NCBI GenBank assembly: GCA_014728035.1
Contig: WJMJ01000015.1
Span: 1 to 10,695 of the forward strand
DNA length: 10,695 nucleotides
Source of the DNA: Promethearchaeota archaeon
GTDB taxonomy: Archaea; Asgardarchaeota; Thorarchaeia; Thorarchaeales; Thorarchaeaceae
Direction of reading: 5' to 3'
In this document: one piece after another, positions 3,011 through 10,695 of the stretch
Layout: every line of letters begins with the position of its first letter
How positions within the stretch are numbered: the stretch's first letter is position 1
Notes under the pieces: model-generated
What the model was told of the DNA's origin: nothing
Databases searched by the model: none
Seen by the model: the letters and a program-made list of their open reading frames with translations, nothing else
Position numbers and translations under genes: made by a program

Positions 3011-3643
3011 ATGGATATCCGGTTTGCCGACAAGCCCACCAGATCACAGAAGATATGCTTGCCCATGTTCGACAACGGCAAGCATATCGGATTATCAAAA
3101 TTAGATGGGTGGAGATGTCGCACCACAATCTATGCTGACGGAACGATCGACTTTCTTTCTAGCTCTGGTAAACGTCTCCCAGTATCTGAAAAAGTCAGAA
3201 ACGCCGTCCGTGCCATCCGTGACGCCGGGAGAGTACCTCTCGCCAGCCAGTTAGATGGCGAATGGATGAAACGAAGACCCGATTATGATGGTCCCGAATG
3301 CATCTATCTATTTGCACCAATGGTATTGGCCGGTGAATGGGTAGGTCATCTGCCATTTAAAGAAAGATGGGAGTGGATAAATAAATTGGAATTGCCAGTT
3401 GATGATTTGTCCATCAAGAAATCGGATCACATGCCAAATGAACCATTACTATTACCAGCATCAGCAAATTGTGAGTTAACCGAATTCTTTGACATCCATA
3501 TCAACGTGCCCAGAACAGAAGGTGTTGTGATCTATAAGGCAGAGGGCAAGATGTATGGCAATCCCAGAGAACCAAAGAAAAGCAGAGATATGTACAAGAT
3601 AAAATATCGGGAAGGCCATGATGGCAGAACAAAGATTGAATAG
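3011..3643 (+). CDS. Stand-alone ATP-dependent ligase adenylation (nucleotidyltransferase) domain, no OB fold
   Basis: Motif I KLDGWR, III LDGEW, IIIa YLFA, IV EGVVI and V MYKIK are present. The protein ends 12 aa after motif V. Confidence 0.85.
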   Translation: MDIRFADKPTRSQKICLPMFDNGKHIGLSKLDGWRCRTTIYADGTIDFLSSSGKRLPVSEKVRNAVRAIRDAGRVPLASQLDGEWMKRRPDYDGPECIYLFAPMVLAGEWVGHLPFKERWEWINKLELPVDDLSIKKSDHMPNEPLLLPASANCELTEFFDIHINVPRTEGVVIYKAEGKMYGNPREPKKSRDMYKIKYREGHDGRTKIE

Positions 3644-4227: not shown

Positions 4228-4244
4228 TGGCACGCTAGTTGCTA
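4228..4244 (+). promoter_or_regulatory. Sigma54-type (-24/-12) promoter P2
   Basis: TGGCACG-CTAG-TTGCTA, with GG at 4229-30 and GC at 4241-42, upstream of GGGAGGA and ATG4269. Confidence 0.85.
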
Positions 4245-4268
4245 GAAAACAGAAGATGGGAGGACTCT

Positions 4269-4643
4269 ATGGGAATGTATGAAGAAAAATTGAACGAGGT
4301 TTTGCAAGAGATCAAATTCGAGTTTGGCACTGGGTTGTGGATAGAGCCACAGGGCAAAGTGCACAAACTTCCCAATGATCAAATCCATGCCAAATGGGCC
4401 AAAACGCATAATATGAATATGGACAAGATGCTCAAAGATGGGTGGGCAAGAGTGAGGGTTGTGGCTGACAGTACAATAGGCGAAAGCTACGACAAAGACC
4501 AGATCTTCAACGTTCATGAAATCGCCAAACGATATGGGACTACATACATCACATTTGTTTGGTACCGAGATAATATGCCAAAGAAATATGAGTATACTCT
4601 TGGAGATCCAGTGCCGGTTTTGGAAGACAAGGAGGACGCATGA
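4269..4643 (+). CDS. Hypothetical protein, FGTG...H..WA...GW.R family (124 aa); paralog of 8215-8676
   Basis: GGGAGGA at 4258-4264 precedes ATG4269; the track TTG start at 4239 lies inside the promoter. ATGA overlap with the AAA gene. Confidence 0.85.
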   Translation: MGMYEEKLNEVLQEIKFEFGTGLWIEPQGKVHKLPNDQIHAKWAKTHNMNMDKMLKDGWARVRVVADSTIGESYDKDQIFNVHEIAKRYGTTYITFVWYRDNMPKKYEYTLGDPVPVLEDKEDA

Positions 4644-7024
4644 ACAACTTTTTGGTGCCTTATCTGAAAGCAGGATATCCAGTTATCTACCTGCTCACTG
4701 CCGAAGAAAACAGGGCGGAATTGACAACGCTCAAGGCAGCACAGGAATGTGGCCGCAATCTGAAGATCTGGTCGCACACAGATGGGTTTTTCGGTGTAGG
4801 CGAAGACGACGATGAAGATTCCACGGAAGATCCTGTCGATGCACTTGAGGTTATCAAGGCATCCCCAGATAAGCAGATGTTTGTATTCCGTGATTTTCAT
4901 CATTTCCTCAAAGTGCCCAAGATTCAGCGTCTTGTTAGGGACATTGCCAAGAAATTCCGACAAACACAATGTTGTATGGTCATCATAAGCCCTATCAACC
5001 AAATCCCACCAGAACTGGAGAGAGAAATCACGCTGGTCGAATTTGAGTTGCCAACGAGGAAAGAAATCGAGCAGACATTCGACAACCTATATAAAGCAAA
5101 CAAGAAATCAATCGGCACAATCGACGACAGCGAAAAAGAGCGCATCATCCAAGCTGCAATGGGACTCACCACCGATGAAGCCGAGGCCGCTTTTGCTAAA
5201 GCCATTGTGGAACGGAACATGAACCAATTGGATACCCCAATATCCAAGATGGTGCTCGGAGAGAAAGCTGCAGCAGTCAGAAAGTCAGGTATTCTTGAAT
5301 ATTTTGAGGCCAAGGAAACAATGGGTGATATTGGTGGCCTTGAAAATCTCAAGAAATGGCTACAAATGAGAAGCAAGGCATTCAGCACCAAGGCACGTGA
5401 ATTTGGATTGCCAATGCCTCGCGGTATTCTACTTGCGGGGATTCCTGGTTGCGTTGCGGCGGGTACGAAAATCATATATAAAAGGGGAAAGAGGCACGGC
5501 GGTCGCACTCTCAATATTGAAGAATTATATGCAAAATTTAATAACATTAGAAAAGGATATGATGGTGGTCCTTCGTGGGATCATACAATACCAACATTTG
5601 CACAATCATGGGATCAAGAGACTGGAAGGATGATATTCGCTGAAATCAGTCATGTTTTGAAAAAGGGTGAAAAAACTTGTATTAGAATCACAACTGATGA
5701 TGCTGGTTACGTCGAGGTCACCAAAGATCATCCTATACTAATGGCAGATGGAGAATTTTGCGAGGCAAGTGATATTATTATTGGTGACAAACTTCTGGTT
5801 CGAGGTTCAATGCTACCAAAACCCAAAAAGAATAGAAAGCAAAAGAAAAAAGCAAAAAGAGCCAGCATTGATAGTCTACCAATTTGGTATAAATCTGGAT
5901 CTGTTAAAAAGGTCAATACGTCATCTGGTGTTTATGAATACAAAAGACAACGACGATCAAGGTTGGTGATCGAAGCGCACATGAATGGGTTATCTTTTGA
6001 TGAATATGTCGAGATACTTCGTAATTGTCCAAAAGAATCAGAATCTATGCGTGTTCTTGGTCCCGAATTTGATGTGCATCATATAGATGAAGATGCAATG
6101 AATGATAACATTTCCAATCTAATGGTAATGCTATCTGAAAAGCACAAAGATCTGCATCACCATCATGATGAAAGCAAATTCGATATCGAATACACCAGAG
6201 AATCTACCGTGGTCAAAATAGAAGATGTTGGCGTACACGAAACTTTTGATATCTCCATAAAAGAGCCAGGACCACACAATTTTTCTACTAGTAATGGTAT
6301 TATTTTGCATAATTGTGGAAAGAGCCTAAGTGCAAAAGCCACAAGTAATATTCTTGGTATCCCTCTTATTCGTTTTGATGTAGGACGGATTTTTGGTGGT
6401 TTGGTGGGACAGAGTGAGGAAAATATGAGATCCGCCATCCAGACAATTGAAGCAATCGGGAATTGCGTCTGCTGGGTGGACGAAATGGACAAGGCATTTG
6501 CTGGTATGGGTGGTGGTTCTACTGATGGAGGAACAAGCCAGCGTGTATTTGGTAATTTCATCACATGGATGCAGGAAAAAACAGCGCCAGTATTCATCGT
6601 TGCCACAGTAAACCGCATCGATGCTCTACCACCAGAACTATTGCGCAAGGGAAGATTTGATGAAATTTTCTTTGTTGGCCTACCATCAGATGACGAGAGG
6701 GAGGATATTCTCAAGATTCATGTCAACAAATATGGACGTGATGCCGATAAATTCAAGCTCGATGAATGTGTGAATAAATCAACGGATTTCAGTGGTGCAG
6801 AGCTTGAGGAAGCTGTGATCAGTGGTCTATACCATGCATTCTACGAGGATAGGGATCTTGAATCCAAGGATATTTTAAAAGCAATTAAGACCACCAACCC
6901 CCTTGCCAAGAGTCGATCACGCCAGCTTGAGGATATGGCAAAATGGGCAACCGGGAATGCAGTAAATGCAAGTGTGGTCAAGAAGGAAACCAAGACGAGT
7001 GCCGGAAGGCAACTGGATATCTAA
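4640..7024 (+). CDS. Ycf46-like AAA+ ATPase (794-aa precursor; 506 aa after intein removal)
   Basis: Degenerate N-terminal AAA-like domain (YPVIYLLTAEENR, FRDFH, IPPELER). Also IGGLENLKKWL, spliced Walker A GIPGCGKS, Walker B WVDEMDK and the SRH region ATVN...LPPELLRKGRFDEIFFVGLP. Confidence 0.93.
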   Translation: MNNFLVPYLKAGYPVIYLLTAEENRAELTTLKAAQECGRNLKIWSHTDGFFGVGEDDDEDSTEDPVDALEVIKASPDKQMFVFRDFHHFLKVPKIQRLVRDIAKKFRQTQCCMVIISPINQIPPELEREITLVEFELPTRKEIEQTFDNLYKANKKSIGTIDDSEKERIIQAAMGLTTDEAEAAFAKAIVERNMNQLDTPISKMVLGEKAAAVRKSGILEYFEAKETMGDIGGLENLKKWLQMRSKAFSTKAREFGLPMPRGILLAGIPGCVAAGTKIIYKRGKRHGGRTLNIEELYAKFNNIRKGYDGGPSWDHTIPTFAQSWDQETGRMIFAEISHVLKKGEKTCIRITTDDAGYVEVTKDHPILMADGEFCEASDIIIGDKLLVRGSMLPKPKKNRKQKKKAKRASIDSLPIWYKSGSVKKVNTSSGVYEYKRQRRSRLVIEAHMNGLSFDEYVEILRNCPKESESMRVLGPEFDVHHIDEDAMNDNISNLMVMLSEKHKDLHHHHDESKFDIEYTRESTVVKIEDVGVHETFDISIKEPGPHNFSTSNGIILHNCGKSLSAKATSNILGIPLIRFDVGRIFGGLVGQSEENMRSAIQTIEAIGNCVCWVDEMDKAFAGMGGGSTDGGTSQRVFGNFITWMQEKTAPVFIVATVNRIDALPPELLRKGRFDEIFFVGLPSDDEREDILKIHVNKYGRDADKFKLDECVNKSTDFSGAELEEAVISGLYHAFYEDRDLESKDILKAIKTTNPLAKSRSRQLEDMAKWATGNAVNASVVKKETKTSAGRQLDI
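5450..6313 (+). mobile_element. Intein (288 aa) with HNH-type homing endonuclease, inserted in the Walker A motif
   Basis: Starts CVAAGTKI after GIPG; block B VTKDHPIL; block F ETFDISI; ends GIILHN followed by +1 Cys (CGKS). The internal DVHHIDEDAMNDNISNL...H...HH segment is an HNH motif. Confidence 0.93.
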
Positions 7025-7036
7025 AAGGAGGACAAC

Positions 7037-7498
7037 ATGAGTCATGTCGCTGTGGTAGATGTGGAAATCAAGGATCTCAAGGCGTTGGAAAAGGCGTGCG
7101 AGAATCTCAATTTGAAATTCAATTGGAACCAGCAGACCTACAAATGGTATGGGCGAAGTGTGGGTGATTACCCTCTACCCAATGGCTTCAAGAAGGAAGA
7201 TTTGGGCAAATGTGACCACGCCATTTCTATACCCAATAACAGCAAGGCATATGAGATTGGCGTCTGCGAGAGCAGGACCAGCAAGAAAGATTCCCATTGC
7301 CTTTTGTGGGATTTCTGGCAGGGTGGTTTTGGGATGCAGAAGATCGTGGGAGACAACTGCAGCAATCTGACCCACGAATATGCCAAGGAAGTTGCGAGGA
7401 AGGAAGTTTCAAAATTGGCTCAGGCGCAAAACTGGACAGTGACAGAGGATTACAACGAGCAAACCGGCGAAACCACAATCAGGCTTCGCAAGTACTAG
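7037..7498 (+). CDS. DUF1257 (Ycf35-like) family protein
   Basis: MSHVAVVDVEIKDLKALEKAC, YEIGV and LLWDFW; typical position next to a Ycf46-like ATPase; RBS AGGAGG. Confidence 0.85.
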   Translation: MSHVAVVDVEIKDLKALEKACENLNLKFNWNQQTYKWYGRSVGDYPLPNGFKKEDLGKCDHAISIPNNSKAYEIGVCESRTSKKDSHCLLWDFWQGGFGMQKIVGDNCSNLTHEYAKEVARKEVSKLAQAQNWTVTEDYNEQTGETTIRLRKY

Positions 7499-7506
7499 GA
7501 GATGGT

Positions 7507-7791
7507 GTGGATATTACGATCAGAATAGACAAATCCGAAAGAGACTATCTGCATCTTTCAATATCACGAGGCACCGAAGTTAAGGCGACCGTCGTGGTAA
7601 GCCTAAAAAGAGATGGGTGGTATGTGCGTAGCGTAAAGGGTCGTGGTATCCTACACCAACAGATACTCCAAACGGCATTGTGGGAGTTAGAAAGCAACCA
7701 GAAATACCGTGATGCCGTTGAATTGATGTCAAAATCAGACACTCTTTATGTTTCCACCAAGGAAAGAGGAGAAGAGTCATGCAAGAAATGA
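7507..7791 (+). CDS. Hypothetical protein (94 aa, GTG start)
   Basis: AGGAG at 7497-7501 precedes GTG7507 (MDITIRIDK...). It fills the gap between DUF1257 and DUF2997. Confidence 0.7.
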   Translation: MDITIRIDKSERDYLHLSISRGTEVKATVVVSLKRDGWYVRSVKGRGILHQQILQTALWELESNQKYRDAVELMSKSDTLYVSTKERGEESCKK

Positions 7792-7973
7792 AGGTCATTA
7801 TTTCTAAAAATGGGCAAGTCACCATTGATGTAGATGGGATCAAGGGTTCCTCATGCAAGACTATGACAAAAGCACTCGAAAAGAGTCTTGGAATCACAGT
7901 CAGTGATAAGAAAAAGACCGAATTCTATGAGGAACAGCAAGTCGATAACCAACAGAATCTGGGGAACTACTAA
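7779..7973 (+). CDS. DUF2997 family protein
   Basis: KVIISKNGQVTIDVDGIKGSSC...TKALEKSLG...KKTEFYE matches the family pattern; RBS GAGGAG. Confidence 0.88.
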   Translation: MQEMKVIISKNGQVTIDVDGIKGSSCKTMTKALEKSLGITVSDKKKTEFYEEQQVDNQQNLGNY

Positions 7974-8218
7974 TGGATATCATCATATCTGGAGATCAAA
8001 TCAGATATATTTATTCTGATGATTTACTTGGTCTCACCAATCATGGCACATCAACGGTAAAAAGAGCAAGCCATGTTGAACCAGATGACAATGGCGGGTG
8101 GAAAGCAGATTTGGGGCCAGTTGGTGGCCCTATTCTGGGGCCATTTAAAAAGAGGTCAGATGCACTGGAAGGGGAGTTAACATGGCTAACGAATCATGGA
8201 GTTCCAACGCCAAAATGA
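7973..8218 (+). CDS. Conserved small protein (RASHVEP...WxADL.PVGGP.LGPF..RS.AL), a neighbour of AAA-DUF1257-DUF2997 clusters
   Basis: TAATG-coupled to DUF2997. The motif is recalled from similar clusters, e.g. in Planctomycetota (from memory, unverified). Confidence 0.85.
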   Translation: MDIIISGDQIRYIYSDDLLGLTNHGTSTVKRASHVEPDDNGGWKADLGPVGGPILGPFKKRSDALEGELTWLTNHGVPTPK

Positions 8219-8676
8219 ACATTGATCATAATACAAAGATCATGCTCCAAAATAGTCAGTTGAGAGAAGCACAGGGCAAATCAGGGGATGATCTTATCAA
8301 TGCATTTGGAACTGGATACTTTGTCGATAGAGATGGTCAATTATATAATATTGGTAAAGCCAAAACACACGAGGAGTGGGCAAATCAACGAGATACAACT
8401 ACCAATGATCTTCTTGATCGTGGTTGGACTAGGATAAGAAATTTTGGTGCATTTGATTACATACAGGGCGATTCACGCACACTGGACAACATATGGTATC
8501 TCATTGAAATTGCTGACAAAGTAAACAAAAACCGAATTATTTACACATATGACAGAAATCGTATTGAATTAATAAAACATGATGATGACAAATGGAGAGC
8601 AATAAATGGCAAAGAGATCAAAGACATCATCGAGTGTAAAATCATTCCTGAGAGCTTTACCAGCAAGATTTACTAA
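8215..8676 (+). CDS. Hypothetical protein, FGTG...H..WA...GW.R family (153 aa); paralog of 4269-4643
   Basis: ATGA overlap at 8215-8218; aligns without gaps to the 4269 protein over 45 aa. Confidence 0.85.
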   Translation: MNIDHNTKIMLQNSQLREAQGKSGDDLINAFGTGYFVDRDGQLYNIGKAKTHEEWANQRDTTTNDLLDRGWTRIRNFGAFDYIQGDSRTLDNIWYLIEIADKVNKNRIIYTYDRNRIELIKHDDDKWRAINGKEIKDIIECKIIPESFTSKIY

Positions 8677-8803
8677 GCATGAATTCGGCCCAGAAGCAGC
8701 GACGCATGGTTATGCGATCAAAGATGATGGCAAAATGGTCGGTTTGATCTTGATTGATGATGGAATAATCCATAAATTTGGTGATATATGGACGTGCAAA
8801 TAA
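8606..8803 (+). CDS. Hypothetical protein (65 aa)
   Basis: GGAG at 8594-8597 precedes ATG8606, and the stop abuts the next RBS. It overlaps the upstream gene by 71 nt, so the start is uncertain. Confidence 0.5.
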   Translation: MAKRSKTSSSVKSFLRALPARFTKHEFGPEAATHGYAIKDDGKMVGLILIDDGIIHKFGDIWTCK

Positions 8804-8812
8804 GGAATTGAA

Positions 8813-9517
8813 ATGAAATATTTATGCAATGACGATCAGTCAAACAAATTCTGGGAATATAAGATCAATGGCACATCAGTAACCGTGAAATGGGGCAGAG
8901 TGGGCCTATCGGGGCAGTCCAAAGTACATAATTTCAGTTCTTCTGATGATATGCAAAAATTCATCAATAAAAAAGTCGCAGAAAAAATGCGCAAGAATTA
9001 TGCACCAGTTGATGACAAAAAGCTAAAGGAAGAGGTGAAAACCGCACAACAGTTGGGTCATCAATATAAAATATCACGTATGTTGTTTGTGAATCAGAAG
9101 GACAATAAACTCACCCATCTAGCCAAATATGATCCAAAGAAGTGGGTCTATGTTGAGATCCTAAATTCATGGAAGAAAGACATCACAAGGCTTCTGTTAT
9201 CCAAGAATGAATCATACGAGATTACTGGTGGGGTGACAGAAGGATACAAATCCATCACCTATGGGCAGAAATCCCCAACATCTGGTAATTTTGTTAATGC
9301 CGTCCGTGGTATATTGCGCCGATTGTCAGAACAGGTGGTTGAAGTGGTTAAGGCAAGAATCACATTATCTGGTGCAAGAAAATTGGATATGGGAGGCGAC
9401 GAACAAGAATATGCAACTGCTGCTTTGGATGCCTTAGAATCCATGAATATTACCAACATGGACAAGAGTGTGGTGTCAAAATTCGCCACCATGGGAACAC
9501 GAGTGTTGGATTTATGA
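8813..9517 (+). CDS. WGR-domain protein (234 aa)
   Basis: N-terminal SNKFWEY...VTVKWGRVGLSGQ...KKVAEKMRKNY is a WGR domain; the C-terminal part is unassigned. Confidence 0.9.
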   Translation: MKYLCNDDQSNKFWEYKINGTSVTVKWGRVGLSGQSKVHNFSSSDDMQKFINKKVAEKMRKNYAPVDDKKLKEEVKTAQQLGHQYKISRMLFVNQKDNKLTHLAKYDPKKWVYVEILNSWKKDITRLLLSKNESYEITGGVTEGYKSITYGQKSPTSGNFVNAVRGILRRLSEQVVEVVKARITLSGARKLDMGGDEQEYATAALDALESMNITNMDKSVVSKFATMGTRVLDL

Positions 9518-9657
9518 AGTGCCTAATGTGCCAAAACACAATCGACGTAGGACAAGGACATTATTTATTACTGGGACCAAAGCCCACATATCATGATGAC
9601 ACCATGAAAAGATCACGCCCACACATTACCCATCCGTCGTATATTACGCCCAAATAA
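9514..9657 (+). CDS. Small MKCxxC ORF (47 aa), possibly a truncated zinc ribbon
   Basis: ATGA-coupled. MKCLMCQNTIDVGQGHYLLLGPKPTYHDDT... has only one CxxC, and its 3' end runs over the distal box of cassette 3. Confidence 0.4.
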   Translation: MKCLMCQNTIDVGQGHYLLLGPKPTYHDDTMKRSRPHITHPSYITPK

Positions 9658-9675
9658 CCATACTACCCATGGTAT
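9627..9675. promoter_or_regulatory. Pair of 16-bp palindromic boxes, cassette 3
   Basis: TACCCATCCGTCGTAT (9627-9642) and ATACTACCCATGGTAT (9660-9675), 33 bp apart. Confidence 0.75.
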
Positions 9676-9681
9676 ATCTTC

Positions 9682-9702
9682 TGGAACGCAATTTGCTATA
9701 AT
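9682..9702 (+). promoter_or_regulatory. Sigma54-type promoter P3, overlapping a sigma70 extended -10
   Basis: TGGAACG-CAAT-TTGCTA (GG at 9683-84, GC at 9695-96). TG-C-TATAAT lies at 9694-9702. Confidence 0.8.
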
Positions 9703-9734
9703 AGAGGTATCTTCCCCCCATATTAGGAGAAAAT

Positions 9735-10628
9735 ATGAGTCAACAGACAAAACAATCACTCATCGCAACGCTCACAGAAGATAGCAAAGATTTCGAGGTC
9801 TTGGGTATGGTGGCATGGTGGAACGTGAGATCGGTTGAAATCAGCACTGAAAACCTATCCAGTCTTCTCACTTCGTGTGGATTGGACCCTAAACATGCCC
9901 GTGAACATAATTATCGGTCATCTTTCATCCGGGCGCTTCGCAATATGGAAGAAAAACGCATTATCAGGATGGTGGAGGAAGATAAGAATCGAATCGTCTA
10001 CCAGTTCACGGCAGAAAACAAGACAGACGGCAATGAATTCAAGTTGTCATATGATCCGGAAACGCTGGTGTCAATTAACAAAGAAGCATATAGGTCTACT
10101 GGTGATATCGATCAGGCCACGACGGGGAGAGATGATATTCGATCGAAGTTGGTTGCGTCTTTCAATATGGAGAAGAATACATACCGATCTGGTGACATCA
10201 CAAGAATGCTCAAGCGGATTTTTGATAAGGAAGCTGACCTCGTGTGTTTGCGCGAGAATGGTGGGGTATATTTCATTCCATCAACCCATGCCCATGTGGT
10301 ACAGAAAGTATCACAAATGATGGATGAATTGGGTAATTCATCCTTCGAATATTTACCATTGCCAAATGTATCTTCATGCCGTTCGCTGCTTAAAAATGCA
10401 GTGACTGATGAAATGGAACTGGCCATGCAAAAGCTGCATGACGAACTACAGAATTCTGACCAGATGACAGACAAGAAGGCAAAACATCGATTGTCGAAAA
10501 TCCGTGAAATGCAAAAACGAATCAACCAATACGAAGAGGTGTTGGATCAAAAGGTCACAAAACACCTCCAGGGTGGATTCAAAAAGATGGAACAGCATAT
10601 CATGTCATCTCGTGTGCTAGATATCTAG
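9735..10628 (+). CDS. DUF6744/DUF3150-like protein (297 aa)
   Basis: LGMVAWWNV near the N-terminus, LRENGGVYFIP motif and a helical C-terminal coiled coil; RBS AGGAG. The family assignment is from memory. Confidence 0.7.
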   Translation: MSQQTKQSLIATLTEDSKDFEVLGMVAWWNVRSVEISTENLSSLLTSCGLDPKHAREHNYRSSFIRALRNMEEKRIIRMVEEDKNRIVYQFTAENKTDGNEFKLSYDPETLVSINKEAYRSTGDIDQATTGRDDIRSKLVASFNMEKNTYRSGDITRMLKRIFDKEADLVCLRENGGVYFIPSTHAHVVQKVSQMMDELGNSSFEYLPLPNVSSCRSLLKNAVTDEMELAMQKLHDELQNSDQMTDKKAKHRLSKIREMQKRINQYEEVLDQKVTKHLQGGFKKMEQHIMSSRVLDI

Positions 10629-10636
10629 GAGATTTT

Positions 10637-10695
10637 ATGACGGAACAGCCTATGTTCCCAATGATCAGTGGTAGTTTATCGGAATCGCCACTACA
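10637..10695 (+). CDS. Start of next gene (partial, MTEQPMFPMISGSLSESPL...)
   Basis: AGGAG at 10627-10631 precedes ATG10637; the frame stays open to the window edge. Confidence 0.65.
   Translation, partial: MTEQPMFPMISGSLSESPL

Follow-up and report, generated by a model that had tools for sequence, protein, structure and literature searches.

The 10,695-bp contig C122 (WJMJ01000015.1, from the Promethearchaeota archaeon assembly GCA_014728035.1) encodes a Ycf46/SpoVK-type AAA+ ATPase that ends in a short peptide. This ending is conserved across the ATPase family. Otherwise unrelated proteins encoded by adjacent genes carry it as well, each with one to three copies that follow flexible linkers. 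The whole contig, hereafter the window, was analyzed as part of a 4.33-Mb assembly of 173 contigs. As read from the alignments, the core of the motif is R-x-[LIM]-[DE]-hydrophobic, mostly C-terminal, with the extended form F-A-x-x-G-x-R-x-L-[DE]-L. We consider the chances evenly balanced that the tail is a portable docking motif of a Ycf46-type, Cdc48-like AAA+ module, whose partners are predicted to plug into the ATPase hexamer.

The shared C-terminal motif and its conservation

Three genes on the forward strand of the window encode proteins with the tail. The 794-residue ATPase (4640-7024; Pfam AAA, 9.9e-22; phrog_8638, 3.7e-137) terminates in G-R-Q-L-D-I, with RQLDI-stop at 7007-7024; in its tail A-G-R-Q-L-D-I (7001-7021) the pattern G-R-Q-L-[DEQ]-[LIF] is kept in homologues. 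The 234-residue WGR-domain protein (8813-9517; Pfam WGR, 8.8e-18) ends in T-R-V-L-D-L (RVLDL-stop, 9500-9517) and contains a second, internal copy, RKLDM, at 9377-9391 (residues 189-193), within S-G-A-R-K-L-D-M (9368-9391). The 297-residue DUF6744 protein (9735-10628; Pfam, 1.6e-18; 22 homologues) ends in S-R-V-L-D-I, with R-V-L-D-I at 10611-10625 and RVLDI-stop at 10611-10628. Both partner domains pass the Pfam cut-offs, WGR (PF05406, residues 7-69) with 64.6 bits versus 22 and DUF6744 (PF20529) with 67.2 bits versus 27. The original prediction, made from the DNA letters, had named these three endings on unrelated proteins together with the internal copy, and all four coordinates proved correct. 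It had further held that the codons of the three tails differ and that, among the complete genes of the window, these three alone have such an ending, both of which our reading bears out. As the codons differ, the match lies at the peptide level.

Endings of the type R-x-L-D-[ILMVF] are carried by 5 of the 5,273 open reading frames (ORFs) of at least 80 residues in the whole assembly. Three of them are on the 10.7-kb contig C122 and the remaining two on the virus-like contigs C74 and C26. Chance is ruled out as the source of the three shared tails.

Conservation was assessed on homologues drawn from public metagenomes. All 40 relatives of the WGR protein, down to 38% identity, carry R-x-L-[DEQ]-L, which is exactly terminal in 38. 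In the ATPase family R-x-[LIV]-x-hydrophobic lies within the last 30 residues of 106 of the 120 best relatives and is exactly terminal in 79 of those 106, typically as G-R-Q-L-[DE]-[LI]. The DUF6744 family retains the tail in 20 of 22 homologues (exactly terminal in 12), with its R and L kept in the same proportion, 20/22. Across families the conservation reaches down to about 35-40% identity, and the tail is thus kept in homologues of all three proteins, the first point on which the original prediction had proposed to be judged.

The motif exceeds five residues. WGR proteins keep F-A-x-[ML]-G-x-R-x-L-[DE]-L, in which F, A, G, R and L vary little or not at all (36 to 40 homologues); in the window this extended tail reads F-A-x-M-G-x-R-V-L-D-L (9479-9514). 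The internal repeat of the WGR homologues is F-A-A-x-G-x-R-K-L-F, followed by a run of Asp. Where the motif is not terminal in DUF6744 homologues, D or E occurs within the next two residues in 6 of 8, and an acidic residue follows 11 of the 27 non-terminal ATPase motifs. Such an acid would fit a receptor that reads the C-terminal carboxylate or its mimic. The ATPase tail sits behind a variable linker of ~12 residues after a conserved N-A-V-N-A-S, and the motif occurs in two copies in WGR proteins and in three in family f1, described below. It therefore has the marks of a short linear motif: a conserved island in variable or disordered surroundings, found on unrelated carrier proteins and enriched next to the ATPase gene. 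The last three residues, L-[DE]-[LI], also match the class II PDZ-ligand pattern; the Pfam matches of the window proteins include no PDZ domain, and internal copies of the motif are present.

Spread of the motif around the ATPase gene

The distribution of the tail was studied in 80 viral contigs around ATPase homologues and in contigs of close relatives. Scans of viral contigs with the single DUF6744 and WGR proteins gave no match, and the WGR alignment matched one locus. In the 80 viral contigs, 31 of 73 distinct ATPases have the strict tail, as do 16 of the 817 same-strand genes located within 5 kb of the ATPase gene, compared with a mean of 1.45 and a maximum of 6 in 200 shuffles, an enrichment of about 11-fold. 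Farther from the ATPase the strict tail was found on 4 of 476 genes, and none of 670 opposite-strand ORFs carries it. The original prediction had called for a genome-wide count and a shuffled background: the tail is rare in the assembly, and in the viral contigs it is enriched around the ATPase (16 versus 1.45).

The tail is borne by at least eight families without relationship at the profile level: WGR, DUF6744, DUF3150, f1, HhH_3, one protein that is ParB-like, one with two transmembrane helices (2-TM), and small orphans. In actinophage-like contigs the gene immediately downstream of the ATPase encodes family f1, which is Corndog gp95-like and ~280 residues long. Tailed neighbours include two helix-hairpin-helix proteins and orphans of 128, 195 and 262 residues. 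Among cultured carriers, mycobacteriophage Corndog has gp96, which ends in V-R-V-L-D-L, and gp95, which contains G-R-A-I-D-F-E and Y-A-L-D-F-E-E-V-V. The idea that DUF6744, DUF3150 and f1 form one hidden superfamily was rejected, as hhalign probabilities were below 1%.

The flavour of the tail changes from lineage to lineage, and in a qualitative comparison it does so jointly on the ATPase and its neighbours. In the clade of the window, ATPase and neighbours end in R-x-L-D-[LI]. On an IncC plasmid of E. coli the ATPase ends in R-K-L-A-I-E-D and three downstream proteins end in K-R-K-I-I-L-D. A cyanophage-like clade has ATPases ending in R-R-R-I-M-[SN], and the products of two upstream genes, a 370-residue orphan and a ParB-like protein, end in R-R-R-R-x-I... 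and K-R-x-I-R-V-G-E. At three loci (L014, L037 and L048) I or M replaces Leu in all copies (R-x-I-D-[AIV] type), giving R-A-I-D-A, R-R-I-D-A, R-V-M-D-V, R-K-M-D-I and R-V-I-D-I. Such a joint shift is what would be expected if one co-evolving site reads all copies of an element.

The motif is merely five residues long, which might invite an explanation by coincidence or composition without any function, but conservation, enrichment and lineage co-variation contradict it and leave it with next to no probability. The short linear docking tag that the original prediction had proposed is well supported by the same three lines of evidence and by the variable linkers, the disorder and the repeats.

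Candidate receptors of the tail

The ATPase gene is interrupted by an intein of 288 residues (ATPase residues 271-558; 5450-6313, forward strand) that includes a homing-endonuclease domain of the HNH type (Pfam Intein_splicing and HNH_3; PHROG HNH families) and has no bearing on the tail. It splits the Walker A loop, with junctions ...GIPG|C and HN|CGKS, across which Walker A is restored as G-I-P-G-C-G-K-S. The AAA match spans residues 558-680 and places the protein in the classical clade of AAA+ proteins (PF00004; SpoVK/Ycf46/Vps4 group); G274, G276, K277, S278 and D330 are invariant in 114 ATPase homologues. Most homologues have ~510 residues and no intein, while a few relatives of 800-1000 residues contain inteins, some of the LAGLIDADG type.

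A structural model was made on P0064, a homologue without intein that shows 80% identity across the C-terminal part used as query (residues 560-794). The model, with a predicted local distance difference test (pLDDT) score of 87.5, consists of an alpha/beta domain plus helical lid (residues 1-218) and, after these, the active AAA domain. Residues 498-509, the final 12, have pLDDT <50 and are disordered. Foldseek aligned ~520-560 columns with the D1-D2 tandem of Cdc48/p97, NVL/Rix7 and Pex1/6 (TMq 0.65-0.70). As the whole chain aligns to the tandem, the model indicates that the ATPase is a two-tier, Cdc48-like protein with a degenerate D1 and an active D2. The D1-like domain has no P-loop; a conserved [ST]-x-E-E-x-R takes its place. 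An N-terminal double-psi-barrel cofactor domain was not found in the model, where the first strand of the D1-like domain begins at residue 14.

No gene other than that of the ATPase occurs in every neighbourhood with the tail. Because the ATPase is the only constant companion of the tail, we place the receptor on the ATPase hexamer, an assignment that gene context puts at about even odds. Two independent assemblies, L091 and L092, are the most telling case. Their ATPase is 73-74% identical to that of the window over the C-terminal part and stops right after N-A-I-N-A-S, and the DNA covered there contains no DUF1257, DUF2997 or WGR gene. Beside this tail-less ATPase, a divergent gene (reverse strand; 9518-9940 in L091, 2404-2835 in L092) encodes the 2-TM protein, which has a Cys/Pro-rich spacer of ~60 residues with C-P-x-P repeats and ends in F-G-S-M-G-G-R-V-L-E-L, the extended WGR-type tail on an unrelated protein. 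The original prediction had listed as possible hubs DUF1257, DUF2997, the 'RASHVEP' protein, the ATPase ring and a host factor. The list was reasonable and included the ATPase ring, and the context in L091 and L092 shifts the weight within it to the ATPase.

If the tail docks on the hexamer, tailed proteins would be adaptors or clients, each engaging one receptor site with its one to three motif copies. Many partners resemble DNA binders (WGR, helix-hairpin-helix, ParB-like) or membrane anchors and would position the unfoldase at DNA-bound or membrane-bound targets, in analogy to p97/Cdc48 and Vps4 cofactors, which dock via short motifs. The ATPase's own tail may compete for this site as an in-built pseudo-ligand: until a partner displaces it, it would either keep the ring auto-inhibited or link one ring to another.

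Alternatively, another module protein, DUF1257, DUF2997 or the two together, could supply the receptor, with ATPase and partners all docking there, much as EEVD tails do on TPR co-chaperones or GQYL tails on the 20S proteasome. The putative DUF1257 (Ycf35-like) protein of the window (153 residues, 7037-7498, forward strand) carries no tail. Its Pfam match is weak and below the cut-off (PF06868, 0.0016; 19.0 versus 22.2 bits); a profile built from phage DUF1257 members that pass Pfam (L012, 37.7 bits) scores it at 2.6e-49, and its Atlas neighbours are DUF1257 clusters. The DUF2997 protein (64 residues, 7779-7973, forward strand; Pfam, 2.7e-15) is likewise without tail. Both genes follow the ATPase here, in close relatives and in many phages and plasmids, and a separate site would naturally explain why the ATPase itself has the tail. 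Furthermore, the tail-less ATPases of L091 and L092 are also those without DUF1257 or DUF2997 nearby. On the other hand, the two profiles match only ~38 of 88 loci, and neither protein is detectable within 10 kb in about half of the loci, including a Corndog-like clade with canonical tails on ATPase and f1. Conversely, ATPases without canonical tail still adjoin both genes in L010, L036 and L070. The DUF1257 model (pLDDT 86.8) has no clear relative in the PDB and no recognisable peptide-binding fold, the best match reaching Z 5.5. We consider a receptor of this kind unlikely, though it ranks next after the ATPase hexamer.

The small module proteins share features that suggest metal binding, as judged from their Cys and His residues. 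DUF2997 has one Cys that never varies, in place of which some phages have a His-rich C-terminus. DUF1257 begins with an invariant M-S-H (7037-7045 in the window), or with M-P-C in short forms. The M-S-H start had prompted us to consider DUF1257 as an N-terminal-nucleophile peptidase; the idea was dropped, as its fold matches are generic alpha/beta sandwiches with Z ≤5.5. In the Corndog-like clade, where neither DUF1257 nor DUF2997 is detectable by sequence within 10 kb, 27 loci encode a 110-residue Cys/His protein (f7) that starts with M-P-C and ends in H-S-H-D-G-G. Alignment by hhalign gave 10.7% over 19 columns with DUF2997 and 0.1% with DUF1257. The M-P-C start common to f7 and the short DUF1257 forms is merely suggestive. 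A radical-SAM/4Fe-4S gene is often found in the same cluster (L011, L017 and a Treponema plasmid).

Several observations weigh against a receptor on the ATPase hexamer. The protein f7 might be a cryptic equivalent of DUF1257/DUF2997 and, given f7, a third party might be the receptor after all. The lack of DUF1257, DUF2997 and WGR genes in L091 and L092 applies to the 21.5 of 73.5 kb and 14.4 of 17 kb covered, respectively. The pseudo-nucleotide pocket of the D1-like domain shows no co-variation with tail flavour, and a tail docked in cis is not seen in the ATPase monomer model, where it has pLDDT <50. A receptor that bears its own ligand is also odd. A complex prediction with P0064 residues 1-494, DUF1257, DUF2997 and WGR residues 176-234, run without controls, gave ipSAE values of 0.01-0.02, which speak neither for nor against any of the candidates.

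The tail might also be a degron or engagement tag, a C-terminus threaded into the ATPase pore so that its carrier is unfolded or pulled off DNA or membrane, as in ssrA-ClpX. It lies at the C-terminus, where it is flexible and exposed, the ATPase is similar to unfoldases that thread their substrates, and partners bound to DNA or membranes could be extracted by a segregase. However, the best-conserved copy sits on the ATPase itself, and internal or repeated copies with acidic linkers suit multivalent docking better than a start of threading. Moreover, no peptidase family is among the Pfam matches of the window proteins. These points make a degron improbable.

Binding to a hub of the host, for instance its DNA sliding clamp, is more improbable still. 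The beta-clamp motif Q-L-[SD]-L-F is also a C-terminal pentapeptide on many DNA-acting proteins; the ATPase ending R-Q-L-D-L resembles it, and many partners bind DNA and are encoded in a replication or recombination context. The clamp analogy drawn in the original prediction fits the ATPase's own Q-L-D-L but not the partner tails. The Q is confined to ATPases (70 of 106), its position being occupied by V, K, T, S or A in WGR and by K, V, A or E in DUF6744 proteins. The clamp motif has no counterpart of the invariant R, and most tails close with L or I instead of the final aromatic; the tails do not qualify as clamp motifs. In addition, the motif accompanies the ATPase in mycobacteriophages, cyanophage-like phages and enterobacterial plasmids, and on membrane proteins, which ties it to the module rather than to the clamp of one host.

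A wider form of docking on the ATPase is conceivable, though we regard it as doubtful. R-x-L-[DE]-hydrophobic could be a universal recruitment code of an ancient Cdc48-like Ycf46 family without N domain, the ATPase tail gating the same site. If this were true, swapping tailed adaptors would let phages, plasmids and cells direct one unfoldase to DNA, to membranes or elsewhere, and ycf46 and ycf35, orphan genes of plastids and cyanobacteria, would use the same code.

Related docking peptides and further genes of the element

Short peptides on unrelated adaptors likewise recruit a single classical-clade AAA+ hexamer in the Cdc48/p97 cofactor motifs and in the MIT-MIM interaction of Vps4. In Cdc48/p97 the SHP box F-x-G-x-G-x-x-h, VIM and VBM bind the N domain, and PUB and PUL domains bind the C-terminal tail of p97. 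We take the extended tail F-A-x-x-G-x-R-x-L-D to look like an SHP box. According to the model, the ATPase of the window shares with p97 a flexible, conserved C-terminal tail and a D1-D2-like fold. In contrast to p97 and Vps4, it has no N or MIT domain to take the peptide and its D1 is degenerate; here the same motif occurs on ATPase and partners, and kinship to UBX, SHP or MIM proteins is unsupported.

HbYX/GQYL tails are similarly a single extreme C-terminal peptide on unrelated proteins that include an AAA+ ring. They are carried by PAN/Rpt, archaeal Cdc48 and Blm10 and by mycobacterial Mpa, Bpa and Cpa, and their receptor is the 20S proteasome ring. The tails of the window, R-x-L-[DE]-[LIF], contain no Tyr and no peptidase was detected by Pfam in the window, which sets them apart from this class. 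The EEVD ending of Hsp70/Hsp90 is an acidic-hydrophobic C-terminal peptide on unrelated ATP-driven machines as well, and TPR co-chaperones bind it, carboxylate included; here, however, the invariant residue is Arg and the window encodes no TPR protein.

Cyanobacterial and plastid Ycf46 belongs to the same ATPase family by source annotation (SpoVK/Ycf46/Vps4) and has the same small partners, Ycf35 (DUF1257) and DUF2997, whereas the copy in the window is phage-borne, intein-bearing and embedded in a replication/repair gene context. We found no publication on DUF6744 and none linking DUF1257, DUF2997 or Ycf46 to the tail motif. Nor was a published account of the motif or of the module's function found, and the literature searched gives Ycf46 no mechanism. 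Phages, plasmids, cyanobacteria and plastids commonly encode Ycf46-type ATPases, and a five-residue handle common to motor and neighbours allows partners to be listed from sequence alone. Tractable carriers are Corndog gp96/gp95 (M. smegmatis) and the IncC plasmid module (E. coli). The motif would extend the small set of shared docking tails formed by HbYX, GQYL, EEVD and the p97 cofactor motifs.

Other genes of the window surround the module. The 81-residue 'RASHVEP' protein (7973-8218, forward strand) has no tail and no Pfam match. In relatives it is kept just upstream of the WGR gene: L001 has the same family there, and L085 and L088 have genes that match it in length and position. Two paralogous orphan genes of one BLAST family, encoding 134 (4239-4643) and 164 residues (8182-8676) and both without tail, flank the ATPase/DUF1257/DUF2997 core. 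A 210-residue protein (3011-3643) shows weak likeness to the adenylation domain of ATP-dependent DNA ligases (Pfam, 0.0042; PHROG 114, 3.9e-05) and is kept in three related giant-phage loci.

C122 is virus-like, with tRNA-Met (CAT; 246-322) and tRNA-Leu (TAA; 963-1040) genes at the contig start and with PHROG matches, and it is a tetranucleotide outlier in the assembly. Its last 141 nucleotides (10555-10695) are 100% identical to positions 1-141 of contig C97, which shows that the element continues in C97, where an NAD-dependent DNA ligase with BRCT domain is encoded (591-2606). This overlap was the only exact (CRISPR-type) match of the contig to the rest of the assembly. The module has close relatives on contigs of 0.13 to 0.94 Mb from metagenomes, and others in records that bear the label of bacterial metagenome-assembled genomes. 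Two origins fit the element: a giant phage that was mis-binned, or an Asgard virus.

Three more tailed ORFs of the assembly, on C74 (7775-8218, reverse strand, ending G-S-R-K-L-D-L) and C26 (9889-10635 and 11379-11738, reverse strand, ending L-R-E-L-D-I and D-R-N-L-D-I), all without Pfam match, are probably further clients in the same or a second element. C74 also carries RNA ligase, RlaP and HsdM genes, and C26 carries a PD-(D/E)XK nuclease. Finally, contigs of relatives of 0.3-0.5 Mb encode zf-PARP, SET and Prok-RING proteins (L085 19071-20330; L088 66-1175 and 5872-6258), a eukaryote-like set that is unusual for a phage-like genome.

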